Assembly: GCA_016839945.1 (NCBI GenBank)
Contig: JAEOTE010000092.1
Span: 1-45,301 of the forward strand
From: Candidatus Heimdallarchaeota archaeon
GTDB lineage: Archaea > Asgardarchaeota > Heimdallarchaeia > Heimdallarchaeales > Heimdallarchaeaceae
Direction of reading: 5' to 3'
DNA: 45,301 nucleotides
In this document: piece by piece, positions 4,257 to 21,323 of the stretch
Position numbering within the stretch: position 1 is the stretch's first letter
How the letters are laid out: each line of letters starts with the position of its first letter
Notes under the pieces: generated by a model
Databases searched by the model: none
What the model saw: the letters and a program-made list of their open reading frames with translations, nothing else
What the model was told of the DNA's origin: nothing
Position numbers and translations under genes: made by a program

Positions 4257-4279
4257 TCTTGAGAAATTATATGAATAGT

Positions 4280-4300
4280 CTTTGACATTTTGAGTCAAAG
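4280..4300. promoter_or_regulatory. perfect inverted repeat CTTTGAC-N7-GTCAAAG, candidate operator or 5'UTR hairpin
   Basis: Seen directly between the TATA-like box and the dppA start. Confidence 0.4.
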
Positions 4301-6068: not shown

Positions 6069-6085
6069 AGTTTAAAATACAAAAT

Positions 6086-6130
6086 TAAAGAAGAGAGTTG
6101 AAAGCTAAACTCTCTGGCTTTATTTTTTTT
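6086..6130 (+). terminator. hairpin plus oligo-T terminator downstream of dppA
   Basis: AGAGAGTT (6092-6099) / AACTCTCT (6108-6115) stem with 8-nt loop, extendable by TAAAG/CTTTA, followed by T8. Confidence 0.6.
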
Positions 6131-6143
6131 CAAAAAATAATTC

Positions 6144-6206
6144 AAAGTAATGTTTAGTTAGTAATATTTTTTCTAAACATATAGTTTTACCCGAAAAATT
6201 TAAAAA
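6144..6206 (+). promoter_or_regulatory. dppB promoter: perfect dyad ATGTTTAG-N15-CTAAACAT, then BRE-like CCCGAAAA and TATA-like TTTAAAAA
   Basis: Second copy of the element at 4192-4228; lies ~40 bp upstream of the dppB start. Confidence 0.65.
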
Positions 6207-6245
6207 TATTTTTGAATATTAAGGTTCAAAAGCGGTGTTTAGATA

Positions 6246-7238
6246 ATGGGTTTAAGAGGATATATAGCTAAAAAACTATTTTTTGCAGCTGTTGCTTTTT
6301 TTGTAGCAATTACAATTGTTTTCTTTCTATACCATGTTATACCAGGAAATCCAGCGAATATATTTGCAACCGATAGAACTGTTAATCCTGATCAAAGAGA
6401 TGCATTACTTGAAAGATGGGGGCTAAATGAACCTTTATGGAAGCAATATGGTATTTTTTTGAGGAATTTATTTCAAGGAGATCTTGGGTTCTCATATCTT
6501 CAAAAAATGCCTGTTACAGATGTTATTGGTGAATCTCTTCCTTGGACGCTTCTACTACTTGGAACGTCTTTTGTTTTAAATGCAGTTATAGGAATCTTTC
6601 TTGGAGCGTTTGTTGCATGGAGAAGAGGATCCAAATTAGATACAGGATTTGTATTAACATACAATTTCTATAATGCTATTCCTTTGTTCTTTGTAGGAAT
6701 GCTTTTTATTGCTTTATTTAGTTTCTATGTTCGAAAATGGGGATGGGGATTCTATTTTCCTGCATATGGAGCACAAACAGCAGGATCTTCGGAATGGGGA
6801 TTCTTTCCTCGTTTAGTAGATATTCTCTGGCATTTAGCTCTACCACTGACGGTACTAACTATAGCAGGTATTCTAGGTTGGTCATGGTTCATGCGAGGAA
6901 ATCTAATAAATATACTAACTGAAGATTATATTAAAACAGCAAGAGCCAAAGGATTAAATGAAAACCAAGTTTTGTATAAGCATGCTTTCAGAAATGCTAT
7001 CCTTCCAGTTGTTACTAACATAGGAATGAGTATAGGAGGATTAATTGGCGGAGCAGTTTTAATTGAAACGGTATTTTCATATCCAGGAACGGGAAGAATG
7101 CTCTATGAAGCACTCATTAGACACGATTATCCTCTAGTTCAAGGGGCATTTATAATCATATCAGGTTTGACTTTACTTGGATTGTTGATAGCAGAGATTA
7201 TTTATGGATTCATAGATCCAAGGATAAGAACAGAATAG
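6246..7238 (+). CDS. dppB: peptide ABC transporter permease
   Basis: GLNEPLWKQY, GDLGFS, EAA loop EDYIKTARAKGL, HAFRNA, ETVFSYPGTG, DYPLVQG, DPRIR. Confidence 0.93.
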   Translation: MGLRGYIAKKLFFAAVAFFVAITIVFFLYHVIPGNPANIFATDRTVNPDQRDALLERWGLNEPLWKQYGIFLRNLFQGDLGFSYLQKMPVTDVIGESLPWTLLLLGTSFVLNAVIGIFLGAFVAWRRGSKLDTGFVLTYNFYNAIPLFFVGMLFIALFSFYVRKWGWGFYFPAYGAQTAGSSEWGFFPRLVDILWHLALPLTVLTIAGILGWSWFMRGNLINILTEDYIKTARAKGLNENQVLYKHAFRNAILPVVTNIGMSIGGLIGGAVLIETVFSYPGTGRMLYEALIRHDYPLVQGAFIIISGLTLLGLLIAEIIYGFIDPRIRTE

Positions 7239-7246
7239 AGGTATTA

Positions 7247-8173
7247 ATGATGGCAACAATGCTTAATAAAAATAATATAATGCGTCGCTTCAAAAGATGG
7301 AACAAGTCATGGAAAGTCTTCAGTAGAAATTGGATGGGTGTTTCAGGCTTAATTATAATGCTATCACTAGTAACATTAGCAATCTTCGCTAAACAAATTG
7401 CTGGATATCATGTTGATGATAGAGATTCTGAAAACATTTTCCAACCACCGGTAGAAGGACACATTTTAGGAACTAATCGTCATGGCAATGATATTTTTTC
7501 CATACTATTGAATAGTCTTGGGATATCCTTAGCAGTAGGTGTAGTAGCTGGTAGTTTAACTGTAATATTAGGAACTACTATAGGAGTTGCGAGTGCATAC
7601 ATTGGCGGGAAATTTGACACTATAGTTATGCGGATAACAGACATAGTTTTGGTAATTCCTGCTTTACCTTTGATGCTTCTCCTAGCATCATTAGTCCCAT
7701 TAATTGTTGATAAACTTTCTTGGTTAGATACCATTCCTTGGTGGTCTATCATTGCATTTGTTTATGTTGTAGTGTTCTGGCCAGTTTCTGCAAGATTAAT
7801 TCGAGGACAAGCACTATCACTTAAACATAGAGCATTCATTACTAGTGCTAAATCTGCTGGTGCTGGAAATGGATATATTATATTCAAACACTTATTACCT
7901 AATGTCTTTCCATTAATGCTTACAATGATTATAACATCAATGAGACAGGCAATTCTATATGAAGCTTTCCTCTCATTTCTTGGGCTAGGAGATCCTTCAA
8001 ATTGGAGTCTTGGTAAGATGTTAAGTGTGGCTCAACAACAAGCTTCACTAGCTACAGGAGCATGGTGGATGTATCTCCCAGCAGGTATAGCTATTGCTCT
8101 CACAACTCTCAGTTTTGCTTTCATTGGAATTGCTTTTGATGAAATTGTAAACCCTCAATTAAGAAGGAGATAA
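7247..8173 (+). CDS. dppC: peptide ABC transporter permease
   Basis: HILGTNRHGNDIFS, MRITDIVL, ARLIRGQ, KHLLPNV, LSFLGLG, NPQLR. Confidence 0.93.
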   Translation: MMATMLNKNNIMRRFKRWNKSWKVFSRNWMGVSGLIIMLSLVTLAIFAKQIAGYHVDDRDSENIFQPPVEGHILGTNRHGNDIFSILLNSLGISLAVGVVAGSLTVILGTTIGVASAYIGGKFDTIVMRITDIVLVIPALPLMLLLASLVPLIVDKLSWLDTIPWWSIIAFVYVVVFWPVSARLIRGQALSLKHRAFITSAKSAGAGNGYIIFKHLLPNVFPLMLTMIITSMRQAILYEAFLSFLGLGDPSNWSLGKMLSVAQQQASLATGAWWMYLPAGIAIALTTLSFAFIGIAFDEIVNPQLRRR

Positions 8174-8177
8174 TACT

Positions 8178-9233
8178 ATGGCACTACTTGAAGTAAAAAA
8201 TCTTAAGACGTACTTTCATACAAGAGCAGGTTCAGTTAAAGCTGTTGATAATGTAAGTTTTAAACTAGGAAAAGGAGAAGTTCTTGGACTAGCAGGTGAA
8301 AGTGGTTGTGGAAAAACAACCACTTGTTTATCGATAATGCAAATGATTGACTTTCCAGGGGAGATCATGGAAGGTCAAATTATATACGAAAATGCATTCG
8401 AAGTTATTACAGAAAATCCAAGTAAGAGTTTTCGAGATAGAATCTTTAATAGAAACGTAGAGAATAAAAAACGAACTAAAAACCTACTTGAGTTTTCAGA
8501 AGCTGAGATGAGAAGTATAAGAGGCAATCATATATCTATGGTTTTTCAAGGAGCAATGAATGCACTAAATCCTGTACACAGAGTAGGTAATCAGATTCAA
8601 GAGGTTTTAAACATACATGAACCAGAATTGGAAAAAGACGAAGCTTGGGATAAAGTTATCGATATTCTTGAAACTGTTGGTATAGATTCAGTGAGAGCTA
8701 GAGATTATCCTCATCAACTCAGTGGAGGAATGAAACAAAGAGCTCTTATTGCGATGGCTTTAGTCAATAATCCCGATATAGTAATTGCAGATGAACCTGT
8801 TACTGCGCTTGATGTAATTGTTCAAGCTCAAGTTCTTAAAGCTACTAAAGAATTACAGAGAAAATTTGATTTATCTATGATAATGATAACCCATGATTTA
8901 TCAGTAATAGCTGAAGTATGTGAAACTCTAGCTATAATGTATGCTGGGAAATTAGTTGAGTATGGAGATCTTCGAACATTGTTTAAAGAACCCTTCCACC
9001 CTTATACTCAAGCCCTAATCAATGCCTTTCCAAGCATAGCAGGTCCAAAGAAAGATTTGTATGACATTGGTGGATTTCCTCCTGATTTACGCAATCCACC
9101 TTCAGGGTGTCGATTCCATCCTAGATGCTCTAAAGCGATGCCAATATGTAGTAAAAAAGAACCTTCAAACACTCCTATCAAAAATGGTTATGTCGCTTGT
9201 TGGTTATATGAAGAGGAGGAAAAGAGAAAATGA
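8178..9233 (+). CDS. dppD: peptide ABC transporter ATP-binding protein
   Basis: GESGCGKT, signature LSGGMKQR, Walker B IADEP, ITHD, C-terminal PPSGCRFHPRC...VACW domain. Confidence 0.95.
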   Translation: MALLEVKNLKTYFHTRAGSVKAVDNVSFKLGKGEVLGLAGESGCGKTTTCLSIMQMIDFPGEIMEGQIIYENAFEVITENPSKSFRDRIFNRNVENKKRTKNLLEFSEAEMRSIRGNHISMVFQGAMNALNPVHRVGNQIQEVLNIHEPELEKDEAWDKVIDILETVGIDSVRARDYPHQLSGGMKQRALIAMALVNNPDIVIADEPVTALDVIVQAQVLKATKELQRKFDLSMIMITHDLSVIAEVCETLAIMYAGKLVEYGDLRTLFKEPFHPYTQALINAFPSIAGPKKDLYDIGGFPPDLRNPPSGCRFHPRCSKAMPICSKKEPSNTPIKNGYVACWLYEEEEKRK

Positions 9234-11020
9234 CATCTTCAGAGATTTCAGATTATTCTTCAATCAGATTAATGAGAATGGCAGGATTTTCATTTCTAGG
9301 ATTGGCTATAATATTTGTTGTTCTGGAAATAATCGTTGTTTTTTTTGGTGAATTATCTTATCTTTCCATTATAACTTCTTTACTACTAAGTCTCTCAGTT
9401 GTAATTCTAGTTTTGTCACTTAGAAAAGTTGCTCTGCAAACTCCCAGTATTAGGAGAAATGTCATTATTGCTAGTAGCTGGTTAATTGGTTATATCTTCC
9501 TAACTATTATTTCAGAAACATTCTTTGTCTTTCTTATATTACAAGTTGCAGCATTTGTAATTGGGCTTATTTCTATGTTAGTAAGAATTATCTCATTTAC
9601 TCAATTAAATAATACTTTCAAACGATTATCTAAAATCGGCTATAATCTTGATTCACAGATTTTCTTACTTTATGGATGGTTTGCTGTTCTTTCAACTGTT
9701 GCATTAATAGTTTCTGTATATACCTTAAATCTTACAGTGATTATTGCTGTAGTAATCACAACTGTTGTAGGAGAAATTTCTCTTTTATTTGCAGTAGGTT
9801 ACAAATTAATTCAAAACTCAAATGCGATTAAAGATATTTTTGAGGGTGTACAAAAACGATTTCTAGATGATAGACCAGAACTAGAGGATCATGAAAACAT
9901 CGTAGTAGAAGCAGTTAATTTAGAAAAACTCTTCCCTGTAATATCAGGCTTTTTTGAAAGCATTTTCTCAATCGAAAGAATTAAAAACACAGGAAGAGCA
10001 ACTGCAAAATATTTCTCTAGCATTTTCTCAAAAGAACGAACTAAAACGATAAAAGAACTAACTAGAGAATATTTCGGGAAAGTATTTGAAGAAAGAGAAA
10101 AACTCTTTGTTCATGCAGTAGATGATGTTTCTTTTAGGATTCATAAAAGAGAAACTTTTGGATTAGTTGGAGAGAGTGGTTGTGGAAAATCAACTACTGG
10201 ATTACTCTTACTATATCTCTTAGAGAGTACTGGAGGTAAAATCTTTTTCAAAGGACTAGATTCTTCAGAACTTTCTGTCAGAGAACTTAAGGAAGTTCGA
10301 CGGTATATACAAATAATTTTCCAAAACCCGTATGAATCATTAAGTCCCCGTTTCAGCATTTTAGATATTATCGCTGAACCTTTGAGATTACTTAACATAG
10401 AGACAGATGAAGCTAAAATAGAAGAAAAGGTTAAAGAAGAATTGGAAAGTGTAGGGTTAATTCCTGCGGAAGATTTTATTGATAGGTTCCCACATGAGTT
10501 AAGTGGGGGACAGAGACAAAGAGTTGGTGTTGCAAGAGCTTTCATACTTGATCCTGAATTCATAGTTGCAGACGAACCTGTATCTATGTTAGATGTATCT
10601 ATCAGAGTAGGTGTTTTGAAAATAATGCGACAGCTTACTCTTGATAGAGGTACTGCTTTTCTTTTTATTACTCACGACCTTGCACTAGCAAGAGTCATGT
10701 GTGATAGAATTGCAGTAATGTATCTTGGTAGGATTGTTGAACAAGGGCCAACAGAAGAGCTGATTCAAAAACCTATCCATCCATATGCTAAAGCTCTTAT
10801 TGCAGGAGTCCCCAAACCTGATCCTGATGCAAAAAGAACAGAAGAGTTACCTATTATTGGTGAAGTTCCAAGTGGGATTGATGTTCCAGCTGGTTGCAGA
10901 TTTAATCCACGATGTCCTTTTGCAATTGACAAATGCAAAATTTATGATCCAAAACTTGAGGAGGTCGAAGAAAACCATTTAGTTGCATGTCTTCGGTATA
11001 AAGAAATCAATGATATGTGA
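9230..11020 (+). CDS. dppF: peptide ABC transporter ATP-binding protein (DppF/OppF-like) fused to an N-terminal ~6-TM domain
   Basis: About 195 N-terminal residues with six hydrophobic helices, then GESGCGKS, LSGGQRQR, VADEP, ITHD, GCRFNPRC. ATGA overlap with the dppD stop. Confidence 0.9.
   Translation: MTSSEISDYSSIRLMRMAGFSFLGLAIIFVVLEIIVVFFGELSYLSIITSLLLSLSVVILVLSLRKVALQTPSIRRNVIIASSWLIGYIFLTIISETFFVFLILQVAAFVIGLISMLVRIISFTQLNNTFKRLSKIGYNLDSQIFLLYGWFAVLSTVALIVSVYTLNLTVIIAVVITTVVGEISLLFAVGYKLIQNSNAIKDIFEGVQKRFLDDRPELEDHENIVVEAVNLEKLFPVISGFFESIFSIERIKNTGRATAKYFSSIFSKERTKTIKELTREYFGKVFEEREKLFVHAVDDVSFRIHKRETFGLVGESGCGKSTTGLLLLYLLESTGGKIFFKGLDSSELSVRELKEVRRYIQIIFQNPYESLSPRFSILDIIAEPLRLLNIETDEAKIEEKVKEELESVGLIPAEDFIDRFPHELSGGQRQRVGVARAFILDPEFIVADEPVSMLDVSIRVGVLKIMRQLTLDRGTAFLFITHDLALARVMCDRIAVMYLGRIVEQGPTEELIQKPIHPYAKALIAGVPKPDPDAKRTEELPIIGEVPSGIDVPAGCRFNPRCPFAIDKCKIYDPKLEEVEENHLVACLRYKEINDM
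9950..10095 (+). repeat. degenerate 60-bp (20-aa) tandem repeat inside dppF, about 2.5 copies
   Basis: 9961-10020 vs 10021-10080 match at 40/60 nt by hand. Protein FFESIFSIERIKNTGRATAK / YFSSIFSKERTKTIKELTRE / YFGKVFEEREK. Confidence 0.7.
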
Positions 11021-11059: not shown

Positions 11060-13312
11060 ATGAGTGAAAATAAATTCAATGAAATCGAAAATCTCATGAT
11101 CACTGGAGAGTACAGGAAATCATTAGATTTAATTTCAAAAGTTCAAATAAATAAACAATTAAATGATGATGAAGTATTCCATCTTCTATCATGTAAATGT
11201 ACATCTTTGAACTGCTTAGGTGAATATGAAGAAACAATTAAAACCGCAAGTGGATATCATATCGAAGCTAAATCTAAACAAAAAGCTTTATGTGAAATTG
11301 ATGCATTATTATTTACAATATTTGCATATTACAGATTAAATAAAAACGAAGAAGCATTAAGAAATGTAGAAAGCGTTGAAAAACTTCTGGAAGGATGTTC
11401 TGAAGAAGGATTGAATCATCGAAAATCAAGATTGCTAGCTGATAAAGCACTTCTTTATTCTAGCAAAGGAGAAGTTAATCAAGCTCTCGAATTATCACAA
11501 GAAAATCTTCAGCTTTGTCAAAAGATGAAAGTGCCACATTTACTAGCAAGAGCTCAGTACATATGTGGCATCATATACAATGATATGGGAGAGAATGAAA
11601 CAGCAATAGATTTCTTTGAAAGAAGTTTGGAGATAAGAGAGAAGCTACAGAATCATTATGACTTAGCTCATTCACTATTCAGACTAGGATACACTTGGAG
11701 GACTCTAGGTGTGCTGGATACTGCTCAAGATTATTTCAATAAAAGCTTAAAACTGAGAGAAAAGATTGGCAACCAACAGGATATTTCTTGGACTCTTTTA
11801 AATATTGGAGATATTCATCTTGCTAGAAAGGATTTGAAAGAAGCTCAGCAGTATTATGATAGTTCTCTTTTGATAAATCAAACTAATAATTTTGATTATG
11901 GAACTGTTTTTTCTTTGATAAGATTGAGTATGATATATGAAGATATGGGGAATCCTCAATTGGTTATAGACACTCTAGAGAAAGCTCTTAATTATTCGCA
12001 GAATCTAGAAATTGTTGGTCCTGAGGTTTTTGTTCTATTTGATTTAATAAATTTCGTCACTGACATTAATACTGAAATTTCTAAAGAATCAAAATCGGAG
12101 ATTAAAGAAATCGATCAAGAAACAATAGAATATGTCAAAGAGAAATTTAACATGTTGAGTGATCATCTGAATAGATTTTCTTTCATTAATTATCTTCATA
12201 GAATAAAGCTGTTTAATCAAATGTATCGACTTGCTAGAGCTTTAGTTCTTAAATCCAACGAAACTGCAAGAGATAAGAAAAAAGCTCAGAGATTGTTGGA
12301 AGAGATTACTGATGAAGATATCATTTCTTATGATTACACAATAATTGCAATGTCAAATTACAGTGAATTACTTGCCGATGAATTAAAAAAACATCTTGGA
12401 GAAGAAGGACTAGTTACCGAGTTATCTGATCTTTCACACATGTTATCACCGGATTATTCGCAAAGAGCATATGCAATAGCAGCAGAAAGTTTTCTTCATC
12501 AGACAAAAACAGCTCTTGAAGAGATAGATATAGCGAAAGCAAGGGAATTGCTTAGGAGAGCTCAAAACCTGAATAATTTCTTAATTTTGTACAACAAAGG
12601 TCCTACACCTTTCAGAATACTATATATTCTCCATACTAAGGAAATGAATTTAAACGGATTGAGCAAAAAACTTGGTATAACAAAAGGTGCTTTAACTAGT
12701 CATTTGAAATTGTTAACTAGTTTAGACTTAGTAAAAATCTCTAAAGAAACACAAGTACGTTCAGCTACTATGTTGAAAAAATACTATTCCTTAGGAGAAA
12801 AAGGAATAGAATTAATCCAAAGATTTGATTTAGATATCTTAGAATCAATTTCTAAAGGTAAAGAGGAGAGTAAATCTATTCTTGATACTCAAATGACACC
12901 TAGATTGTTAACTAAGATGATAAGAGATGTAACTTATTTAATTGACAAAAGTCAAAATTTCGTTGAAGAACAGATTTTAACTCACTCATTTAACAGTTCA
13001 GATGAGATAGAAAAACGATCTAATGAATTAGAAGTAGCTAGTAAATGCATAAAAGATTCTGAAGAAATTAAAATTGATAATTTGTTTCTAACGGAAAAAC
13101 AATACAAGGCTTATATGATGCTGTGGAAAGAGTTCAGAGATAAAGTTCAAGATGAAATTCTTACTGTAAATATTGATTCTTCTGAATATCATTCAGTAGA
13201 AAAACCAAATTATATTGTTCATCTATCTCTACCAATAAGAGATTTAATAGATCTAGAAAGATTTTTAGAAGAGAAAAGAAGAAAAGAAGAGAAGGAGAAG
13301 AAGATTTCTTAG
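11060..13312 (+). CDS. TPR-repeat protein with C-terminal ArsR-like winged-helix DNA-binding domain, putative transcription regulator
   Basis: TPR units (AIDFFERSLEIREKL, AQDYFNKSLKLREKIG); wHTH FRILYILHTKEMNLNGLSKKLGITKGALTSHLKLL...KKYYSL. Confidence 0.8.
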   Translation: MSENKFNEIENLMITGEYRKSLDLISKVQINKQLNDDEVFHLLSCKCTSLNCLGEYEETIKTASGYHIEAKSKQKALCEIDALLFTIFAYYRLNKNEEALRNVESVEKLLEGCSEEGLNHRKSRLLADKALLYSSKGEVNQALELSQENLQLCQKMKVPHLLARAQYICGIIYNDMGENETAIDFFERSLEIREKLQNHYDLAHSLFRLGYTWRTLGVLDTAQDYFNKSLKLREKIGNQQDISWTLLNIGDIHLARKDLKEAQQYYDSSLLINQTNNFDYGTVFSLIRLSMIYEDMGNPQLVIDTLEKALNYSQNLEIVGPEVFVLFDLINFVTDINTEISKESKSEIKEIDQETIEYVKEKFNMLSDHLNRFSFINYLHRIKLFNQMYRLARALVLKSNETARDKKKAQRLLEEITDEDIISYDYTIIAMSNYSELLADELKKHLGEEGLVTELSDLSHMLSPDYSQRAYAIAAESFLHQTKTALEEIDIAKARELLRRAQNLNNFLILYNKGPTPFRILYILHTKEMNLNGLSKKLGITKGALTSHLKLLTSLDLVKISKETQVRSATMLKKYYSLGEKGIELIQRFDLDILESISKGKEESKSILDTQMTPRLLTKMIRDVTYLIDKSQNFVEEQILTHSFNSSDEIEKRSNELEVASKCIKDSEEIKIDNLFLTEKQYKAYMMLWKEFRDKVQDEILTVNIDSSEYHSVEKPNYIVHLSLPIRDLIDLERFLEEKRRKEEKEKKIS

Positions 13313-14427
13313 TTTTTATTCCGATTTCTTTTAATTAATCCTCTTTTTCTAAGCTTCAATGTCCTTCTTACCGCAAGAACTATTTCTAAGAAAATGAAAA
13401 TTCCAAACGAATATAAAATAAAAACCAAAACCACAATCCTGACAAAAGGAGAATATGATTGATCAAATCTAAGGTAAAGATGAATCAAACCTGTCCCAAG
13501 TTCATAGAATGGTTGAAAAATGTCATAGATTATATTATCTTTATACTTACCTAGTACTTCAACTCCGTATGAGTCTATAATGAACATAGTATTTTTAGCT
13601 CTAAGTTGTACCATTAAAGCTTCTTCTGAGAATTCTGTTACATTAAGAGCTGTCCATGCATTAACTTTCCCTCCATCAGATCTATCTGGTGAATGCATAT
13701 CTGTTCCTGTAATTAATCCTATTGTCTCATTATGTTCTAGATAAAAATCATAAGATACGTAATCAAATACTTGACCGTTCACTACTTCAAAAAAATCTAC
13801 TCCCCAAGACATCAGTTGATTTCTAGAGGGTGTTATGTCATTAAAAGAATTCTCACTATACAGCAAATGATTTGCTACAACAACTCCACCTTGAGAATGT
13901 GCTTCTTCAATTGTTTCTATTATTTCATCATCTGTTGGATTAATTGGTATTTTTAAGTTCCATTCCTTTATTCCTAGAAGATTCAAATGTACTCTTTTTG
14001 TAGTCCATTCCATCCCTTGAAGAATAATAATCTTATCTTTATACTCTTGTGCTAATTCAGCTATCTCAAATGAATTCTCAAGTGAGTTATGATCAGTAAT
14101 AGCAAAAGCATTGAATCCAAGAGCTAAATGCCATTCAATACTTTGTCTGATGGTTAATTTTCCATCACTGTATTTTGTATGGGAATGTTGATCAAACAAT
14201 ATATCATATGTGATATTGGTTACAGGAATAAAAGGATCTATGTCTTCCCAACTATCTTCATAGTATTTTCTTTCCGCTGGACCAAATTTTGCCATAATAA
14301 CACTAAAAGCCATAACAGACCCTATAACAATAAAATATATCAATAGATGCTTAATTATTGTTGGTACCTTCTGCGGAAATTTCATGAGTAATTTAAGAGA
14401 ACAATTTATAAAAGCGTTAAGTTTCAC
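13309..14427 (-). CDS. membrane-anchored PHP-domain metallohydrolase
   Basis: PHP motifs DQHSHTKYSDG, ITDHN, GMEWT, ANH, GTDMH; TM helices at both ends. Start may be the ATG at 14385. Confidence 0.85.
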   Translation of the reverse strand: MKLNAFINCSLKLLMKFPQKVPTIIKHLLIYFIVIGSVMAFSVIMAKFGPAERKYYEDSWEDIDPFIPVTNITYDILFDQHSHTKYSDGKLTIRQSIEWHLALGFNAFAITDHNSLENSFEIAELAQEYKDKIIILQGMEWTTKRVHLNLLGIKEWNLKIPINPTDDEIIETIEEAHSQGGVVVANHLLYSENSFNDITPSRNQLMSWGVDFFEVVNGQVFDYVSYDFYLEHNETIGLITGTDMHSPDRSDGGKVNAWTALNVTEFSEEALMVQLRAKNTMFIIDSYGVEVLGKYKDNIIYDIFQPFYELGTGLIHLYLRFDQSYSPFVRIVVLVFILYSFGIFIFLEIVLAVRRTLKLRKRGLIKRNRNKN

Positions 14428-14447: not shown

Positions 14448-14834
14448 TCACATAGTCAAAGCATTATTTTTGTGTTCTAACGCAATTTCCTCAAATTTAT
14501 ATGTGACTTCACTTAGAAAACTAACTTTCTCTGCAGAATCAGAATAAAATCTCTCGAGCGTTTTTTCAATTATTTTTCCTGTATTTTCAGTTTTATTATC
14601 TTCTATTAAAATAGTAATTTCATAAGGTTCGGAAACAAAATTTTCAATAGGTTCGAGAATCATTTCTGTTGTATTTTCTCTGCGTATTCTTTTTAATTTT
14701 TTAATGCGTTTTTCATATTGAATAAGGAGACTTTTAAAAGATGTAAAATTAGCATTATTTTCATAGAAATCTCTAGCTTCAGTTTCCAATTTTAATGCAA
14801 ATTTTAGGACTGCTCCTAATGTAGCTAAGTTCAT
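14448..14834 (-). CDS. ferritin-like (rubrerythrin-like) four-helix-bundle protein
   Basis: Twin FALKLETEARDFYE / IEKTLERFYS pattern; 17 bp downstream of mmsA on the same strand. Confidence 0.6.
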   Translation of the reverse strand: MNLATLGAVLKFALKLETEARDFYENNANFTSFKSLLIQYEKRIKKLKRIRRENTTEMILEPIENFVSEPYEITILIEDNKTENTGKIIEKTLERFYSDSAEKVSFLSEVTYKFEEIALEHKNNALTM

Positions 14835-14851
14835 TTTTTCACCTTATTTTT

Positions 14852-16309
14852 TTAGAACCATCTAGTAATAACTACTTTTTCTTCTGTAAAGAAATCCACA
14901 GCATTCTTCCCTTGTCCATGTAAATCTCCTTTGAAGCTATCTTTCATACCAGAAAATGGAAATGTAGAAATTGGTGCAGCAACACCAATGTTTATACCTA
15001 TGTTTCCAACATTTACTCTATATTGATATTCTCTAGCTATTTTTCCACTTGATGTGAAGATAGAGGATGCGTTTCCATATGGATTTTCGTGAATAATGTT
15101 AATAGCTTCATCTAGATTTTTAACATGAATAATTGGGATAACAGGACCGAAAATTTCATCTTGTGCTATAGTCATACTTGGTGTGACTTTATCAAATATT
15201 GTCGGTCCAATAAAGAAACCATTTAAGAATTTCTCATTTTTTCTTACATTTCTTCCATCAAGTATAATTTCGGCTCCTTCTTCAACTCCTGTTTGGATAT
15301 AACTTAGAACACTTTTCATTCCCGCTTCTGATGCAAGAGGACCCATTTGAATACTTTCATCTAATCCCTCACCAATAGTAATTTTCTTAGCAGCTTCTAA
15401 AAGAGATTCTCTGAGTGTTTCATATATATCCCCTACAGCTAGAAGTACTCCTCCTGCAAGACACCTTTGACCTGCATTTCCATAAAAGGAAGTTATTAAA
15501 TTTGGAATTGTTCTTTCAAGATTAGCATCAGGCATCACTGTAATAAAATTCTTTGCTCCTCCTTGGACTTGAACTCTTTTCCCAAATTCACCACATTTTT
15601 TATAGAGAAGTTTTCCAACTTTTGTTGAACCTACAAAAGATAATCCAACTGTATCAGGACTCTCAATAAGTGTATTAACAGCTTCTGCTCCACCATGAAC
15701 TAAATTGATAACTCCTTTAGGAATACCAATTTCATCAAATATTTCAAATTGTTTAACCATACTTAAAGGACATTGATCTGAAGGTTTCAGAATATAAGTA
15801 TTCCCTGTTGCAATAGCATAAGGCCAGAACCAAGAAGGAACCATTGCAGGGAAATTAAAAGGTGCTACACAAAAGAAGATACCCAATGGTTGTTTTATTA
15901 CCATTTCATCTATACCTGCAGCTACATCTTCAATATTATATCCCATCTGAAGCGTAGGTATTGTTGTTGCAGTTTCAATATTTTCGATTGTTCTTCTATA
16001 CTCTCCTCTGGATTCATCTATCGTTTTTCCATGTTCTATTGTTAACACTTCTGATAATTCATCAAAGTTTTCTTCTAGAGCTTCTCGAAAATCATATAGA
16101 TACCTAATCCTGGATTGAGCTGGAGTAGTTCTCCATCTCCAGAATGAAGTTTTTGCTGCTTCAATTGCTTGCAATGTTTCTTCTTTTGTACTTATAGGTG
16201 ATTTAGCAATAATTTCTCCAGTTGCTGGATTAATAACATCTCTAGTTTTGTCTGTTACAGATTCAATCCATTTTCCATTAATGTAATTCTTTAAAACTTC
16301 TCCATTCAT
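14852..16309 (-). CDS. mmsA: CoA-acylating (methyl)malonate-semialdehyde dehydrogenase
   Basis: APFNFPAMVP, LKPSDQ, SFVGSTKVG, RVQVQGGAKNF (no ELGG glutamate, typical of CoA-acylating ALDH), GQRCLA, EIFGPV, FFTEEKVVITRW. Confidence 0.92.
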   Translation of the reverse strand: MNGEVLKNYINGKWIESVTDKTRDVINPATGEIIAKSPISTKEETLQAIEAAKTSFWRWRTTPAQSRIRYLYDFREALEENFDELSEVLTIEHGKTIDESRGEYRRTIENIETATTIPTLQMGYNIEDVAAGIDEMVIKQPLGIFFCVAPFNFPAMVPSWFWPYAIATGNTYILKPSDQCPLSMVKQFEIFDEIGIPKGVINLVHGGAEAVNTLIESPDTVGLSFVGSTKVGKLLYKKCGEFGKRVQVQGGAKNFITVMPDANLERTIPNLITSFYGNAGQRCLAGGVLLAVGDIYETLRESLLEAAKKITIGEGLDESIQMGPLASEAGMKSVLSYIQTGVEEGAEIILDGRNVRKNEKFLNGFFIGPTIFDKVTPSMTIAQDEIFGPVIPIIHVKNLDEAINIIHENPYGNASSIFTSSGKIAREYQYRVNVGNIGINIGVAAPISTFPFSGMKDSFKGDLHGQGKNAVDFFTEEKVVITRWF

Positions 16310-16457
16310 ATTACCACTTTGTACTAATTATTCCAATTTGAGGTTAATGTGTTAAAAGATTATTCAAGACTTATAAGTTTTTTATAAAATCAAAAAAAAA
16401 CACTTCTAGAATACCTTTTTAAGGAGAAATCTGTTATTTTTCAAAATAGTCTTTGAT

Positions 16458-17759
16458 GTGATTTATTTGAATTCCAAAGAAGTAATAAAAAAAGATAAAG
16501 AATTCTATATTCAAGGGTATGCAAGAGTACCTGTTGTTTTTACAGAAGGTAAAGGTGCTATGTTAAAAGATATTGATGGAAAAGAATACATTGATTGTTT
16601 TGCTGGAATCGCGGTTACTAATGTAGGTCATGCTCATGAAAGATTAGTTAAAGTTGCCAAAGAACAAATGTCAAAATTGATTCATACATCAGGTCGGTTC
16701 TTTAATGTTCCACAGACACTTCTAGTAGAGAAACTAGCAAAAATAACTCCTGGTGATTTAAAATACACATATTTATGCAATAGTGGAACAGAAGCAGTAG
16801 AAAATGCAGTTAAGTTGGTTAAGAAATATGCTTATTCACAAGGAAAAACAGGAGCAGCTTTAATAGCTTTAGAATGTTCTTTTCATGGAAGACTAGGGTA
16901 TTCTCTAACATTAACAGGACAAGCAAAATACAAGAAAGGTTTTGGAACTTATGCTAATGCTCCAGGAGTTGTTCATGCTCCAGCACCATATACTTACAGA
17001 TCTAAGTTATCAGAAGAAGAATGTGGTATAGATGCTGCATTAGCTATAGAAACAACAATAGATAGGCAAACAACGGGAGATGTAGCAGCTTTCATAATGG
17101 AACCAATATTGGGAGAAGGAGGAATTATAATCCCACCTGATTCTTATTTTAAAACTCTTGTAAGCATTTTAAAAGAGAGAGATGTTCCATTCATATTGGA
17201 TGAAGTACAGACTGGATTTGGTCGCACAGGCAAGTTGTTTGCTAGTGAGTATTGGGATCTTAAACCTGACCTTATGACATTAGCAAAAGGACTTGGAGGA
17301 GGAATGCCTATTGGCGCTGCAATTGCTACTAGTAGGATAGCTGATTGCGTAGAATCAGGAGATTTCTTCTCTACTTATGGAGGAAATCCAGTTTGTAGTG
17401 CAGTAGCTTTAGAAAATATATCTATCCTATCTGATGAGCAATTAATTAACAATTCAGCTAAAATGGGTAAAATCTTTCTAGAAGAATTGACTGAAATGAA
17501 AGAGAAGAAACCAATCATTGGTGAAGTAAGAGGAAAGGGTTTGATGATAGGAATAGAATTAGTCAAAGATCAACAATCAAAAACACCTGCTTCAGCTGAA
17601 GCAAAAAAGATTGTAACATTTCTCAAAAACGAAGGGATCATAATTGGTTTAGGTGGTATATTTGGAAATGTTCTACGATTACAACCTCCCCTATGTATAG
17701 ATGAGGATCAAGTGGTTAAAGTATTAGAAAAAATTAAAAAAGGAATCAACTTGCTTTGA
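16458..17759 (+). CDS. class III PLP-dependent omega-amino-acid aminotransferase (GabT/AGXT2/ArgD-like)
   Basis: NSGTEAVE, SFHGR, EPILGEGG, DEVQTGFGRTG, LAKGLGGG, STYGGNP. Confidence 0.92.
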   Translation: MIYLNSKEVIKKDKEFYIQGYARVPVVFTEGKGAMLKDIDGKEYIDCFAGIAVTNVGHAHERLVKVAKEQMSKLIHTSGRFFNVPQTLLVEKLAKITPGDLKYTYLCNSGTEAVENAVKLVKKYAYSQGKTGAALIALECSFHGRLGYSLTLTGQAKYKKGFGTYANAPGVVHAPAPYTYRSKLSEEECGIDAALAIETTIDRQTTGDVAAFIMEPILGEGGIIIPPDSYFKTLVSILKERDVPFILDEVQTGFGRTGKLFASEYWDLKPDLMTLAKGLGGGMPIGAAIATSRIADCVESGDFFSTYGGNPVCSAVALENISILSDEQLINNSAKMGKIFLEELTEMKEKKPIIGEVRGKGLMIGIELVKDQQSKTPASAEAKKIVTFLKNEGIIIGLGGIFGNVLRLQPPLCIDEDQVVKVLEKIKKGINLL

Positions 17760-17770
17760 ATAACATCCTA

Positions 17771-18727
17771 TTATTCTTTATAACAGCTTAACACTGCATC
17801 CCAGGCAACTTCGGAAGCTTCAATTCCAAAGGAAGTTAAAGGTAATTTTTTGTTTTCTATCTCTTGAGTGCTAACAATGTAAAGTGAATCACCATCATTA
17901 ATAGCATGAAAAGGTTGTATTGCACGAGCCATTGAAGCATGAATTTGTCTTCCAGCTTGTCTTAAAGAATAATCATCAAATTTCTGATTGGTTACTATTA
18001 GAGTTAGAGTTGTGTTTGTTGTAAGATTTTCATTCCTATCAGCTATTTGTGTATTAATATATTCTTTTGCATTAACTCTCTCATTTTTTGTTCGATCTAA
18101 AAATCCTCTTACAATTTCTCCATCTCGGTTAATTATTGCTCCTAGAGCATTTACTACTGTAAAAACTAATATTTTGGTATCTCCTACTTTGGTATAAGCT
18201 CCTCCTTGTCCTGCCATTTCAGCATATGAAAAATCTAGGCATTTTCCTACTGAAGCTGATATGCCTGCACCTTGAGGTCCTAATGGAAATTTACCTTCTA
18301 CAGCTATTTTCAAGGCTTCTCTTCCTAAATTTTTATCTGGATAGATTGAATTCTTTCTAGGTCCAAAATCATAGATTATTGCACCAGAGACTAATGGTAT
18401 TTCCAGCCAATTAGGAGAGTAATTCCTCCATTTGAGTAATTCAGCTGATACACCAGTTATGGCTTCATATCCCCATAAAGACCCTCCAGCAAAACAGATG
18501 GCATCAGCATAAGTTCTATTCTGTCCAATTACTCCAGGGGCTCCTCCTCTAATATCACTAGCCATTTTGACTCCTTTAGGAAAATAAAAAACTGTACATC
18601 CTGTTGGACCATCCTCATATTCAGCTATACCTATTTTTAATCCAGGAAAATCAAATTTTAAAATTGGTTCTTTGAAGGAAGTATTTAGCTTTAGCTCAGC
18701 ATCATCATTGGATATTAAATCATTCAT
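17771..18727 (-). CDS. peptidase S58/P1 family Ntn hydrolase, NylC (6-aminohexanoate-oligomer endohydrolase)-like
   Basis: FDFPGLKIG..YEDGPTGCTV, RGGAPG, IIYDF..R...YPDKNLG, SASVGK, GQGGA, VVNALG, autocleavage N|TT, IHASMARAIQPFH...DGD, ASEVAWDAVL. Confidence 0.88.
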   Translation of the reverse strand: MNDLISNDDAELKLNTSFKEPILKFDFPGLKIGIAEYEDGPTGCTVFYFPKGVKMASDIRGGAPGVIGQNRTYADAICFAGGSLWGYEAITGVSAELLKWRNYSPNWLEIPLVSGAIIYDFGPRKNSIYPDKNLGREALKIAVEGKFPLGPQGAGISASVGKCLDFSYAEMAGQGGAYTKVGDTKILVFTVVNALGAIINRDGEIVRGFLDRTKNERVNAKEYINTQIADRNENLTTNTTLTLIVTNQKFDDYSLRQAGRQIHASMARAIQPFHAINDGDSLYIVSTQEIENKKLPLTSFGIEASEVAWDAVLSCYKE

Positions 18728-18851
18728 ACAGAAAGTTGGAAATTAAATTATTAAGAGTTTCTTATTAAATAAAAAGAAAGTGAAGAATTATCGTCTTCAT
18801 TTCTTAAATGTAATTATATTTATATTACCAAAATATTGCCAATTTATAAGG

Positions 18852-20111
18852 ATGAAAATCAAACCTGAGACAATTAAAGAAATTGCAGCTGTTTTAATAC
18901 TATTAGTCATAGGTGTAAGTCTTCCAATATTAATAACATATGAGAAAGAATACAATATTGAAATAAAAAATGATAAAGACTTCAAGAAATACAAATTCCC
19001 TGGAAATGGATCTGTATCCAATCCTTATCTCATAGAAAATCTATCAATCATACGAGCAAAAAAAAGAGGAATATCTATTTCAAATACAAGTAAGTATTTT
19101 GTTATTAGAAATTGCACTCTTGGGTACAATTTATTTAATGGAATTAACATCCAATACATAAAAAATGGAACAGCTAAAATCTATGATAATGTTTGTTTTG
19201 GACATTCAGCAGAGGGAATAAATATAGTTTCTTCTGATTATCTCGAGGTTTACAATAATACTTGTTTTGATAATAAAATTGAACTAAATATTGAGAGTTC
19301 TAAACATTGTTATGTAGCTAATAATCATCTTTACAGATCTAGAGAAATTACTGGTCAAGAAAGATTTGTGTATAGTGGACTAATATTGAAGAATTCATTC
19401 TTTGTAACTATTGACAACAACAAAATTACTCAAACAACCCGAGGAATATATATAGAAAAAAGCTATAATTGTACCATATCAAATAACAACATAAATAAGG
19501 TTGCCAATTTAGGAGTAACTTTAATTTCAAGCTCATATTGTAACATTATCGGTACTACTAGCAAATCCACAATATATGATGGCTTTGTTTTTCGTCATTC
19601 TAACTATAATTACATTACAAATTGCAGTTCTATTGTAAATAATTTTGGATTTTATCTATCAGATAGTAGTGAAAATACTCTCTCCTTTAACAAAATTGAA
19701 AGGAATAGAGAAGGTCTCCATCTTACATCTAATAGTCATAATAACACTATAAGCTATAATGAATTTCTCAACAATACTGATGAAGGAGTTAATATTGATG
19801 GGGGTGAGTTTAATATTATTCATCATAACACTTTTTCTTTCAATAATCTTGGAGAAATTTCCCAAGCTCAGGATAATTCATCGAATAACATATGGTATGA
19901 CATTAATTCTCATGAAGGCAATTTTTGGAATGGGTGGAACAGCTCTGATCCTTATGTAATTATGGGAAGTGCAAATAGTACTGATTTATATCCATTAGAC
20001 GAACCCATTAACTTAATAATGAAGAATTATTTCATCAGAATTCATCAAGAATTGAAATCAATAGAAGGTTTCCAAAAATTGTTTATACACTTTTCAATTA
20101 CTAATTCATGA
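18852..20111 (+). CDS. membrane-anchored right-handed beta-helix (NosD/CASH-like) surface protein
   Basis: N-terminal TM, FPGNGSVSNPYLIENL, many GI.I..S.N..I.NN repeats, GNFW...DLYPL end. ORF is open from 18780; ATG 18852 preferred. Confidence 0.82.
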   Translation: MKIKPETIKEIAAVLILLVIGVSLPILITYEKEYNIEIKNDKDFKKYKFPGNGSVSNPYLIENLSIIRAKKRGISISNTSKYFVIRNCTLGYNLFNGINIQYIKNGTAKIYDNVCFGHSAEGINIVSSDYLEVYNNTCFDNKIELNIESSKHCYVANNHLYRSREITGQERFVYSGLILKNSFFVTIDNNKITQTTRGIYIEKSYNCTISNNNINKVANLGVTLISSSYCNIIGTTSKSTIYDGFVFRHSNYNYITNCSSIVNNFGFYLSDSSENTLSFNKIERNREGLHLTSNSHNNTISYNEFLNNTDEGVNIDGGEFNIIHHNTFSFNNLGEISQAQDNSSNNIWYDINSHEGNFWNGWNSSDPYVIMGSANSTDLYPLDEPINLIMKNYFIRIHQELKSIEGFQKLFIHFSITNS

Positions 20112-20132: not shown

Positions 20133-21323
20133 TTAACCACTTCTTTTCCACTTTCTTCTTTTTGTAATGATTATTGCAAGAACCATTAAGATTGGTGCAT
20201 AGGTAACAAATTTATAGCTAGTTTTAGTTGTTTTATCAATTAAGATAGAAGGATCTAAAACTCCTCTAACTGCTTTTGATGCATTCAAAAGTCCATATCC
20301 AAAGTAATCATCTTTTCCTGAATCTCCTAGATCAGTTGCTGATTTATGAAGAATATCTCTTATCTCTTTAACTGTTAAAGAATAATTCAAAGATTTCATC
20401 AAAGCGATAACACCAGAAACTTGTGAACATGCAAATGAAGTTCCCAATCCCCACCCATAGTATGAGTTAAAAGAATAAAACGGCATTGTGCTCCAAAGTT
20501 TAACACCACCACCTTCATCACCAACTGGAGCAACAATTTCAGTTGCTTCACCATAATTACTATAGTCAGCTTTTTCTTGATTATTGTTTGTTGCACCAAC
20601 AGCTATAACTATTTCACTAGCACCTGGGTGCTCTATGAAATTCCGTCCCCCTGTAGGTAACCATGTATTCCCTGTAACAGCTACTATCGGGATATTTTTC
20701 TCATAAGCATAAGCAAGTTCATCATAATATAATGAAGAATTATCAAAAGCATATAAGCTGAGATTTATTACATCAGCACCATTATCAGCAGCATAACGAA
20801 TAGCAGCTCCAAAATCCGTATAACTATAAAATGCTTCGTTGATGTCCATTAGTCTAACGTCCATAATTGTTACATTTGGAGCAACTCCCAGCATCCCATT
20901 ACTATCCCATGGTGCTACAATAGTTCCTGCTATAAAAGTGCCATGCCAATGAACTAGATCCCCTGGTTCTGGTCCAGGTGTTGAATCATCAGAACTAAAA
21001 TCCCAACCATGAACATCATCTATGTACCCATTTCCATCATCATCAATTGAATTATTAGCTATTTCATCTACGTTAGTCCAGGAAACATTTTGCAAATCAG
21101 GATGAGAAAAATCAATTCCTGTATCAATTACTGCAACAGTGATATCTTTCGATCCGTTAGTGATTCTTAAAGCATCTTTAAGATATATTTGTTCTTGAAA
21201 AAACTGATTCTCATGATTAATAGCTTTAGTCAGATTTATCAAGCTGTTTTGAGTGTTACTGAAGCTAAAGATAGATAAAGAAATAATAATAGTAAGTACA
21301 AAGATTGTTTTACTTTTAGACAT
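20133..21323 (-). CDS. subtilisin-like serine protease (S8), secreted and C-terminally anchored
   Basis: VAVIDTG, DDDGNGYIDDVHGWDF, HGTFIAG, TGN oxyanion Asn, GTSFAC, FGYGLLNA; signal peptide and TM + basic tail. Confidence 0.92.
   Translation of the reverse strand: MSKSKTIFVLTIIISLSIFSFSNTQNSLINLTKAINHENQFFQEQIYLKDALRITNGSKDITVAVIDTGIDFSHPDLQNVSWTNVDEIANNSIDDDGNGYIDDVHGWDFSSDDSTPGPEPGDLVHWHGTFIAGTIVAPWDSNGMLGVAPNVTIMDVRLMDINEAFYSYTDFGAAIRYAADNGADVINLSLYAFDNSSLYYDELAYAYEKNIPIVAVTGNTWLPTGGRNFIEHPGASEIVIAVGATNNNQEKADYSNYGEATEIVAPVGDEGGGVKLWSTMPFYSFNSYYGWGLGTSFACSQVSGVIALMKSLNYSLTVKEIRDILHKSATDLGDSGKDDYFGYGLLNASKAVRGVLDPSILIDKTTKTSYKFVTYAPILMVLAIIITKRRKWKRSG

Follow-up and report, generated by a model that had tools for sequence, protein, structure and literature searches.

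What a NylC-like hydrolase might do in an uncultured archaeon is the question raised by a locus of Candidatus Heimdallarchaeota archaeon, in which such an enzyme is encoded beside a class III aminotransferase (AT) and a CoA-acylating (methyl)malonate-semialdehyde dehydrogenase (MmsA). The locus lies on contig JAEOTE010000092.1, from which a stretch of 45,301 nt (hereafter the window) was analysed; its own genome is coded G000 and the related genomes G001 onward. The initial annotation described three neighbouring enzyme genes separated by a divergent gap of 148 bp and a convergent gap of 11 bp, and the map of open reading frames (ORFs) agrees with it exactly (Table 1). Our analysis suggests, with a probability of roughly 0.55, that Heimdallarchaeia-type Asgard archaea possess an island for importing and breaking down unusual peptides or amides, one version of which lies in the window, and that the NylC-like enzyme feeds a core formed by the AT and MmsA.

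MmsA scores 522.3 bits on TIGR01722, passing the curated family threshold (448.5), and can be aligned end to end with the methylmalonate-semialdehyde dehydrogenase (MSDH) of Bacillus subtilis (1T90; E 4.6e-139). In MSDH, the Arg preceding the catalytic Cys and a second, upstream Arg are the residues for the substrate carboxylate. The Arg-Cys catalytic motif is kept in MmsA (GQRC aligned to GERC of 1T90), as is the upstream Arg (EYRRTIEN versus EVGRGIEN), and by these sequence features the protein is very probably a CoA-dependent oxidiser of (methyl)malonate semialdehyde. The analogy with NylE drawn in the initial annotation holds at the superfamily level only, as MmsA is CoA-acylating and (methyl)malonate-semialdehyde-specific. 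The AT matches PF00202 (Aminotran_3) over the full-length fold (401.6 bits, residues 20-428); as judged from gene context alone, its substrate would be beta-alanine or 3-aminoisobutyrate.

The NylC-like protein is similar to solved NylC (E 1.3e-73, its residues 12-315 on residues 40-353 of 5Y0L) and to the nylon hydrolase Nyl12 (9Z0A; E 2.6e-67). N238/T239 correspond to the autoprocessing site N266/T267 of NylC, which supplies the Thr nucleophile, and are unchanged in every one of 14 Asgard rows, and K162, N193, Y119, D278, and D280 match K189, N219, Y146, D306, and D308 of NylC, respectively. On PF03576 (S58), the protein scores 43.6 bits versus 386.5 bits for the DmpA-like proteins of relatives. 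No signal peptide was detected in it, and it is therefore predicted to be cytoplasmic, as are the AT and MmsA.

A NylC-like protein, a beta-lactamase-fold enzyme, a class III aminotransferase, and an aldehyde dehydrogenase, all encoded within 16 kb, could also be taken for the components of a genuine nylon-oligomer (6-aminohexanoate) pathway, as in Arthrobacter (NylC/NylB/NylD/NylE). We regard such a pathway as next to impossible here: the dehydrogenase is of the MmsA type, carrying the Arg pair suited to a C3 carboxylate, and not an adipate-semialdehyde dehydrogenase, the sole PF00144 gene is Pab87-like rather than NylB-like and lies 13 kb away, and the locus is kept across uncultured Asgard archaea from environmental metagenomes. 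In addition, a published panel study concluded that NylC homologues natively serve a function other than nylon degradation (bioRxiv 10.1101/2024.11.14.623603). The substrate of the NylC-like enzyme is probably something other than 6-aminohexanoate oligomers.

The survey of relatives covered 61 genomes, the assemblies of which are 63-96% complete, so that a gene missing from one of them is not shown to be absent. Of the 61, 18 yielded an mmsA gene (identity of 53% or more) and 6 a NylC-like gene; all six also possess mmsA. In every examined mmsA locus of sufficient length, mmsA, a gene for a 128-aa protein, and the AT gene occur together, in divergent or collinear orientation. In the window's own family (10 mmsA loci, including those of G016 and G022), this core usually adjoins an Opp importer and a regulator combining tetratricopeptide repeats (TPR) with a winged helix-turn-helix (wHTH) domain where the contig is long enough. 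The gene for the 128-aa protein lies within the interval, beginning at position 14448, to which the initial annotation referred, but was left out of it. Because the own-family loci keep mmsA, the small protein, and the AT near the importer and regulator, the stable unit differs from the trio of enzymes originally proposed as a module: the adjacency of the three is real, but it is mmsA, the 128-aa protein gene, and the AT gene, together with the importer and regulator in this family, that form the stable unit.

We refer to the gene located directly after the AT gene, on the side away from mmsA, as the slot. It could be read in 15 Asgard loci and encodes an amide hydrolase, and no other kind of protein, in 15 of 15, although these counts overstate the independent events because the genomes are kin and the 15 loci represent perhaps 8-10 independent arrangements. 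The commonest occupant is the NylC-like enzyme (n = 6; the window, G016, G022, G012, G044, and the Hodarchaeales contig of P0076), followed by a DmpA/BapA-type S58 enzyme (n = 4; G001, G021, G023, and the contig of P0004; E 1.4e-99 to 1B65 and 1.5e-92 to BapA, 3N2W) and an FmdA/AmdA (FmdA_AmdA) amidase (n = 2; G005 and G004). Single loci carry a beta-lactamase-fold enzyme (G025), an Amidohydro_3 protein (G006), and a CN_hydrolase (Hodarchaeota L013). The gene order is AT(+), DmpA-like(-), and S8(-) in G001 and AT(+), NylC-like(-), beta-helix(+), and S8(-) in the window; therefore, the NylC-like gene occupies the DmpA-like position, replacing there the beta-aminopeptidase-type enzyme of the congener. 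The only DmpA-like paralogue in G000 (44% identical) is located on another contig. In G022, G012, and G044, the NylC-like gene is collinear with the AT gene, with gaps of 1-32 bp or overlaps. As a member of the module, then, the hydrolase is linked to the AT in Asgard archaea, but is facultative and exchangeable, being found in 6 of the 18 mmsA-bearing relatives and being replaced in the slot by five other amidase families.

Linkage across relatives, the absence of which had been chosen beforehand as the result that would speak against a module, was found: the NylC-like gene adjoins an AT gene or lies <5 kb from one in 9 of 11 distinct Asgard loci (four metagenomic contigs included). Because only ~2% of random G000 genes are expected to have an AT gene at this distance (the 3.0-Mb genome contains one mmsA and six class III aminotransferase genes), chance does not account for the adjacency. 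In a tree of 96 sequences, which was built by a quick search and in which the Asgard rows are of deviant composition, the Asgard NylC-like proteins (14 rows) form one clade with a support of 99 in the Shimodaira-Hasegawa-like approximate likelihood-ratio test (SH-aLRT). This clade comprises four subclades, all of which are represented among the nine AT-linked loci, in at least five arrangements. The NylC-like proteins of the window and G016 are ~57% identical to those of G022, G012, and G004, whereas the mmsA genes of the same genomes share 79-82% identity; both versions abut the AT gene. On the Hodarchaeales contig, the NylC-like gene is located 23 bp after oppF. G012 contains AT copies 94% identical to one another on two contigs (L010:68-592 and L116:723-2033), one of which precedes a NylC-like gene while the other does not. 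This duplication probably reflects strain heterogeneity in the presence of a NylC-Amidohydro_3 cassette and not a separate AT-NylC module.

The likely substrates of the core are indicated by its occurrence in a second context. In the reductive pyrimidine route, uracil yields beta-alanine and thymine yields 3-aminoisobutyrate, which an AT and MmsA convert into acetyl-CoA or propionyl-CoA. A complete-looking operon for this route in G053 (L119; G053:C93, 7058-14253) holds an mmsA orthologue (54% identity), a homologue of the 128-aa protein, and a class III AT of the PRK06062 type, which is non-orthologous to that of the window (28-30% identity). It also has genes for a dihydropyrimidinase (TIGR02033, 466 bits versus a cut-off of 393) and, in divergent orientation, for a dihydropyrimidine dehydrogenase of the PreA type (NF006183, 432 versus 335). 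The gene directly after the AT is a CN_hydrolase similar to N-carbamoyl amidases, a candidate beta-ureidopropionase that would release beta-alanine. In G041, G044, and G045 (families f3/f5 of the same class), mmsA follows a dihydropyrimidinase gene, as judged by similarity to the G053 genes, and in G045 and G043 the 128-aa protein and a PRK06062-type AT follow mmsA; the G043 contig ends before a possible dihydropyrimidinase gene, and only the G053 operon is resolved in full. Because the core lies in the pyrimidine operons of sister families, we consider it highly probable that the AT and MmsA handle beta-alanine or 3-aminoisobutyrate; these operons and the kept pairing of the two genes bear out the route suggested in the initial annotation. 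By extension, the enzymes that fill the slot in the window's family, the NylC-like one among them, are most simply read as amidases releasing beta-alanine from imported amides. An SsnA-like aminohydrolase gene was also seen beside the G053 operon.

In a Hodarchaeales order (L127, 1627-8965; L013, 5460-10942), mmsA and the 128-aa protein gene are accompanied by genes for a luciferase-like oxidoreductase, an Amidohydro_3 protein, and a NylC-like enzyme. The Amidohydro_3 neighbour of NylC-like genes had no significant match among the NCBIfam models and, among solved structures, is similar only to those of uncharacterised hydrolases from Pyrococcus; by sequence comparison it is not predicted to be a dihydropyrimidinase. 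In L127 (JGI Ga0452204_012863), a beta-keto acid cleavage enzyme (BKACE) gene and a short-chain dehydrogenase/reductase (SDR) gene follow the NylC-like gene. The substrates of BKACE enzymes are beta-keto acids, and the presence of this gene may point to additional chemistry of beta-amino or beta-keto acids in an operon with mmsA and a NylC-like gene.

The pyrimidine operons also open the way to a different role for the NylC-like enzyme, which might act on pyrimidine-derived amides as a non-orthologous beta-ureidopropionase or ring-opening substitute, the beta-alanine then coming from uracil. The location of the mmsA-128-aa protein core inside the sister-family operons, the carbamoyl amidase-like enzyme after the AT in G053, and the gene content of the Hodarchaeales order are consistent with this role, as is the position of the NylC-like gene after psuK-psuG, the product of which is uracil, in 34 of 58 Gaiellales-type actinobacterial loci. 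We nevertheless hold it to be improbable. No dihydropyrimidine dehydrogenase or dihydropyrimidinase gene was found in the locus of the window or its genus, which carries an Opp importer instead; the Amidohydro_3 neighbour is not of the dihydropyrimidinase type; any of three CN_hydrolase genes of G000 could act as a beta-ureidopropionase; and the link to psuK-psuG is limited to one actinobacterial lineage. Moreover, we know of no P1/S58 enzyme that cleaves a ureido bond.

As candidates for a second pyrimidine route, G000 has two hydantoinase-like amidohydrolase genes, both scoring under the dihydropyrimidinase cut-off. One (G000:C126, L134, 4178-10900) occurs with genes for a metallo-beta-lactamase-fold protein, a pyridoxal phosphate-dependent decarboxylase, an Asp/Glu/hydantoin racemase, a second class III aminotransferase, and an SDR. 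At a contig edge, a luciferase-like gene precedes the other one (G000:C149, L135, 1-2124), whose counterpart in G004 has no obvious pathway partners, as judged by ORF layout alone.

For the island of the window, we infer the substrates, the direction of flux, and the arrival of the NylC-like product at the AT as follows. A membrane-anchored S8 protease, possibly together with a PHP-domain hydrolase and a beta-helix protein, would cut extracellular material, and the resulting small oligo-amides would be imported by the Opp/Dpp system under the control of the TPR-wHTH regulator. In the cytoplasm, the NylC-like Thr-nucleophile hydrolase and a Pab87-like S12 enzyme would cleave the imported amides. 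The GabT-like AT would then turn beta-alanine (or 3-aminoisobutyrate) into malonate (or methylmalonate) semialdehyde, which MmsA, using CoA and NAD+, would convert into acetyl-CoA (or propionyl-CoA).

Several observations weigh against this scheme. The island is rich in hydrolases, and the adjacency may partly reflect mere shared peptide catabolism. In the window, the NylC-like gene has its own promoter region and, because it is convergent to the AT gene, is transcribed separately from it, and no common motif linking its regulation to that of the AT and mmsA was found in the window promoters or in relatives. NylC-like genes were not found in 12 of the 18 mmsA-bearing relatives; the gene is unlinked to an AT in G004 and stands alone on a Promethearchaeota contig, and the kinship of the genomes reduces the weight of the slot counts. 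Characterised NylC is an endo-hydrolase of 6-aminohexanoate oligomers that prefers C6 units, and their monomer would yield no substrate for MmsA. The AT remains under all NCBIfam equivalog cut-offs (TIGR00700, 343.9 versus 506.65; PRK05769, 384.4 versus 552 bits), and its closest solved relatives, gamma-aminobutyrate (GABA) transaminases (E 1.7e-77), are nearly equalled by class-III-fold racemases/epimerases (E 1e-72). In a bacterial comparison comprising the 80 best of 480 genome hits, more distant NylC relatives lying outside it, none of the 77 nearest NylC-like loci (53-58% identity) has mmsA within 10 kb or an AT gene within 5 kb, a single 30%-identical AT being found 7.4 kb off, and on three further bacterial contigs neither gene occurs within 6 kb of the NylC-like gene. 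The NylC-AT link is thus a feature of the Asgard clade and not of NylC-like enzymes generally. The initial annotation had hoped that the context would point to the native substrate of NylC-like enzymes at large, which it does not, because the bacterial loci lack AT and mmsA genes nearby.

Some of these points can be combined into a reading in which co-location is all that there is: the core would burn beta-alanine of any source, and the NylC-like enzyme would be one of many general hydrolases, not feeding the AT. At least nine hydrolase families plus S8 proteases occur in the island, the NylC-like gene is facultative and unlinked in the two cases named above, its transcription unit is separate and convergent, and its bacterial homologues reside in unrelated contexts. 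Such a reading, the chief alternative, deserves attention but appears unlikely in view of the slot, which contains an amidase in every readable locus and most commonly the NylC-like one. The slot of the resolved pyrimidine operon is occupied by the carbamoyl-amidase-like CN_hydrolase, and the NylC-like gene is collinear with the AT gene in three genomes. On balance, the most likely interpretation is that, in this lineage, imported amides are cut by the NylC-like enzyme to give beta-alanine-type units.

The similarity of the AT to class-III-fold racemases/epimerases raises the further possibility that it is an amino-acid racemase or epimerase acting on D-amino acids from D-stereospecific peptidases (Pab87-like, DmpA-like, or NylC-like), with MmsA being functionally unrelated, e.g. 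serving valine catabolism. The S12 and S58 families do include D-specific peptidases, and the E values given above scarcely separate the two activities, but we consider this possibility very improbable. The leucine/methionine racemase model gives 282 bits where 800 are required, and is outscored by the models for GABA-AT and acetylornithine-AT. The AT is tied to mmsA in every locus, and a non-orthologous class III AT takes the same place beside mmsA in the sister families (in G053, inside the operon resolved in full), an exchange that is understandable only for a transaminase. Pfam scans of the window proteins revealed no mmsB or other valine-pathway gene nearby.

Bacterial neighbourhoods were considered as a guide to the function of the NylC-like enzymes and rejected. 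The only recurrent neighbours (psuK/psuG, ClpB, and LytR) are restricted to Actinomycetota, and no neighbour is conserved across the NylC-like loci of Chloroflexota, Thermomicrobiota, and Cyanobacteria, where the psuK-psuG pairing is also absent. A Calothrix context, with the NylC-like gene beside genes for pyruvate:ferredoxin oxidoreductase and a DHO_dh-like protein, is not kept in other loci of the cyanobacterial clade. In the Gaiellales-type loci (L017-L091; e.g. L041:8475-10948 and L060:4283-6815), the 34 NylC-like genes mentioned above lie directly after psuG (Indigoidine_A), often within a few bases, and 31 of these loci also show psuK (PfkB). It is conceivable, although doubtful, that NylC-like P1 hydrolases natively liberate beta-alanine or 3-aminoisobutyrate in a role equivalent to that of beta-ureidopropionase or beta-aminopeptidase, the Asgard slot and the Gaiellales psuK-psuG-NylC operon representing one and the same role on pyrimidine- or beta-peptide-derived beta-alanyl or ureido amides. 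If this were true, nylon hydrolysis would be incidental, arising from the recognition of an omega-amino-acid leaving group.

The third constant member of the core, the 128-aa protein, has no Pfam or NCBIfam match. An alignment of 15 sequences revealed invariant E17, E53, E57, E61, and E109 as well as a RRENTTEMILEPI motif. The AlphaFold2 model is a confident four-helix bundle with a predicted local distance difference test (pLDDT) score of 91.2, and Foldseek returned only weak ferritin-like matches (E 0.09-0.3); an Atlas score of 0.89 is no more than a lead. The protein accompanies mmsA in the peptide-island and pyrimidine-operon versions alike (hhalign 99.4% for the latter), and the model and this association suggest that it may be an unrecognised accessory subunit of, or sensor for, MSDH. 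This ferritin-like protein is a new constant companion of mmsA, with no described function.

Table 1. Coordinates, strands, and supporting matches of the features of the island in the window
Feature	Position	Strand	Basis and remarks
S12 beta-lactamase-fold peptidase with Pab87 octamerisation domain, predicted cytoplasmic	2724-4154	-	PF00144, 183.5 bits, and PF13969; fold common to NylB
Opp/Dpp ATP-binding cassette (ABC) importer, five genes	4326-11020	+	Pfam; SBP_bac_5 binding protein (4326-6068), two permeases, OppD-like and OppF-like ATPases
OppF-like ATPase, 596 aa	9230-11020	+	
TPR and ArsR-type wHTH one-component regulator	11060-13312	+	TPR families, HTH_5
Membrane-anchored PHP-domain CehA/McbA-family metallohydrolase	13309-14427	-	PF02811, NF038032; last gene of the mmsA transcription unit
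Ferritin-like four-helix-bundle protein (predicted), 128 aa	14448-14834	-	Alignment and AlphaFold2; constant mmsA partner
CoA-acylating (methyl)malonate-semialdehyde dehydrogenase MmsA, 485 aa	14852-16309	-	TIGR01722 and 1T90 match
Divergent promoter region of mmsA and AT	16310-16457	.	148 bp; contains 12-mer AATAGTCTTTGA
Class III (GabT-like) omega-aminotransferase, 433 aa	16458-17759	+	PF00202; putative substrate beta-alanine or 3-aminoisobutyrate
Convergent gap between AT and NylC-like genes	17760-17770		11 bp
NylC-like P1/S58 N-terminal-nucleophile amide hydrolase, predicted cytoplasmic, 318 aa	17771-18727	-	NylC structures, PF03576; amidase slot downstream of AT
Membrane-anchored right-handed beta-helix (NosD-like) protein	18780-20111	+	PF13229, PF05048; divergent from NylC-like gene
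Membrane-anchored extracellular subtilase (S8)	20133-21323	-	PF00082, 158.7 bits; recurrent island flank

In G001, G004, G005, G012, G022, G023, and G025, the importer genes run collinearly with those of the regulator and the mmsA core. A homologue of the regulator (43-75% identity) is located between oppF and the mmsA core in seven other loci, either adjacent or with a PHP hydrolase gene intervening, and another homologue was found at the contig edge of an eighth locus (G006). The OppF-like ATPase has strongly hydrophobic stretches (residues 12-192) before its ABC domain and looks like a membrane-tethered protein. The PHP hydrolase scores 101.4 bits on NF038032 (cut-off 80) and carries hydrophobic segments at both termini; no solved relative was found for it by sequence, and among the loci examined it occurs only in the closest relatives (G016, G004, G001, and G025). 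The S12 peptidase has no hydrophobic segment, and homologues flank the loci of G005 and G023 too. The beta-helix protein has an N-terminal hydrophobic segment, and its gene also adjoins the NylC-like gene in G016 and on the P0004 contig. The S8 subtilase has a signal-like N-terminus and a C-terminal anchor, and one or two copies are present near the locus in G001, G004, G005, G006, G012, G016, and G022. Further hydrolases around the core in relatives include S9, M20, and AAT-family N-terminal-nucleophile enzymes, and an Amidohydro_3 gene adjoins the NylC-like gene in four loci. The window also carries TFIIB-like and Cdc6-like genes (Pfam matches).

The 45-kb window contains just two copies of the 12-mer AATAGTCTTTGA, one upstream of the binding-protein gene and one upstream of the AT gene (16445-16456). 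Within 4274-4300, the former copy runs into a perfect palindrome (CTTTGAC-N7-GTCAAAG, 4280-4300; chance expectation 0.01), and the 12-mer is kept upstream of the binding-protein gene of G023. As a shared operator, however, it was dropped, being absent upstream of the NylC-like gene and not kept upstream of the AT gene in relatives, even in G016 (90% identity).

If the proposed scheme is correct, the loci suggest that beta-alanine bound in amides can serve as a carbon and nitrogen source for these archaea. They would also portray one oxidation unit, composed of MmsA, the ferritin-like protein, and either of two non-orthologous ATs, into which at least six unrelated amidase families, or else the pyrimidine pathway, would feed. 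Such reuse of a catabolic funnel illustrates how pathways evolve in modular fashion, here in archaea close to the eukaryotic ancestor. For enzymatic nylon recycling, NylC-type enzymes serve as the main starting points, and the Asgard loci offer an initial clue, limited to this lineage, to a native role, with a short list of substrates (beta-alanine oligomers or peptides and N-acyl or N-carbamoyl beta-alanine) and a ready three-enzyme coupled assay.

We found no paper describing this locus, and none on Heimdallarchaeia and beta-alanine that names the lineage. The protein families are already known, as is the AT-MSDH pair as a beta-alanine module, of which bauA/bauC of Pseudomonas aeruginosa is one instance. 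Another is the beta-alanine catabolic operon of Pseudomonas sp. AAC, which encodes an AT and a malonate-semialdehyde dehydrogenase (KES23458/KES23460; PMC4907197), and the AT and MSDH genes are co-localised in Sulfolobus tokodaii, within the context of the Sulfolobus BarR regulon (PMC4977709). The Asgard pair shows the same adjacency and the same logic, from beta-alanine through malonate semialdehyde to acetyl-CoA. However, the AT of the window is GabT-like, whereas theirs are of the pyruvate-dependent omega-transaminase type, and the regulator is of the TPR-wHTH type instead of the Lrp or LysR type. The constant ferritin-like protein, the Opp importer, and the changeable amidase are peculiar to the Asgard pair in this comparison. 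What is new is the combination of the AT-MSDH module with a TPR-wHTH regulator, an importer for oligopeptides, and a slot in which the amidase can be exchanged, and the placement of a NylC-like enzyme in a natural catabolic context. Pyrimidine clusters (PydA/PreA, PydB, PydC, AT, and MmsA) contain the same mmsA-128-aa protein core in sister Asgard families, whereas the window locus lacks PydA, PydB, and PydC and has an oligopeptide importer, peptide/amide hydrolases, and a non-orthologous AT.

Among hydrolases, the DmpA/BapA beta-aminopeptidases (1B65 and 3N2W), which release N-terminal beta-amino acids including beta-alanine, belong to the same P1/S58 superfamily, share the autoprocessing, and are found in the slot of relatives, while the window protein is of the NylC subtype. 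Enzymes related to DmpA/BapA have been treated elsewhere (PMC9235088). The NylC enzymes of Arthrobacter, Agromyces, and Kocuria (3AXG and 5Y0L) and Nyl12 (9Z0A) share with the window protein the full-length similarity, the Asn/Thr site, and the Lys, Asn, Tyr, and Asp-x-Asp residues. The window protein differs in being archaeal, in being ~28 residues shorter at the N-terminus, and in falling into a distinct Asgard clade. For NylC homologues, the published panel study describes the native function as undetermined and the genes as not being near nylA or nylB (bioRxiv 10.1101/2024.11.14.623603); the window gene is likewise not near nylA or nylB but adjoins beta-alanine-type catabolic genes. Neither a NylE-type dehydrogenase nor a NylB orthologue was found in the window locus. 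With the Arthrobacter Nyl pathway, finally, the locus has in common the order of reactions, from amide hydrolase through omega-aminotransferase to semialdehyde dehydrogenase. NylE, however, is a non-acylating adipate-semialdehyde dehydrogenase, whereas MmsA takes its place here and implies C3 rather than C6 substrates, and the Nyl pathway is plasmid-borne and directed at a xenobiotic, whereas the window represents a natural chromosomal island.

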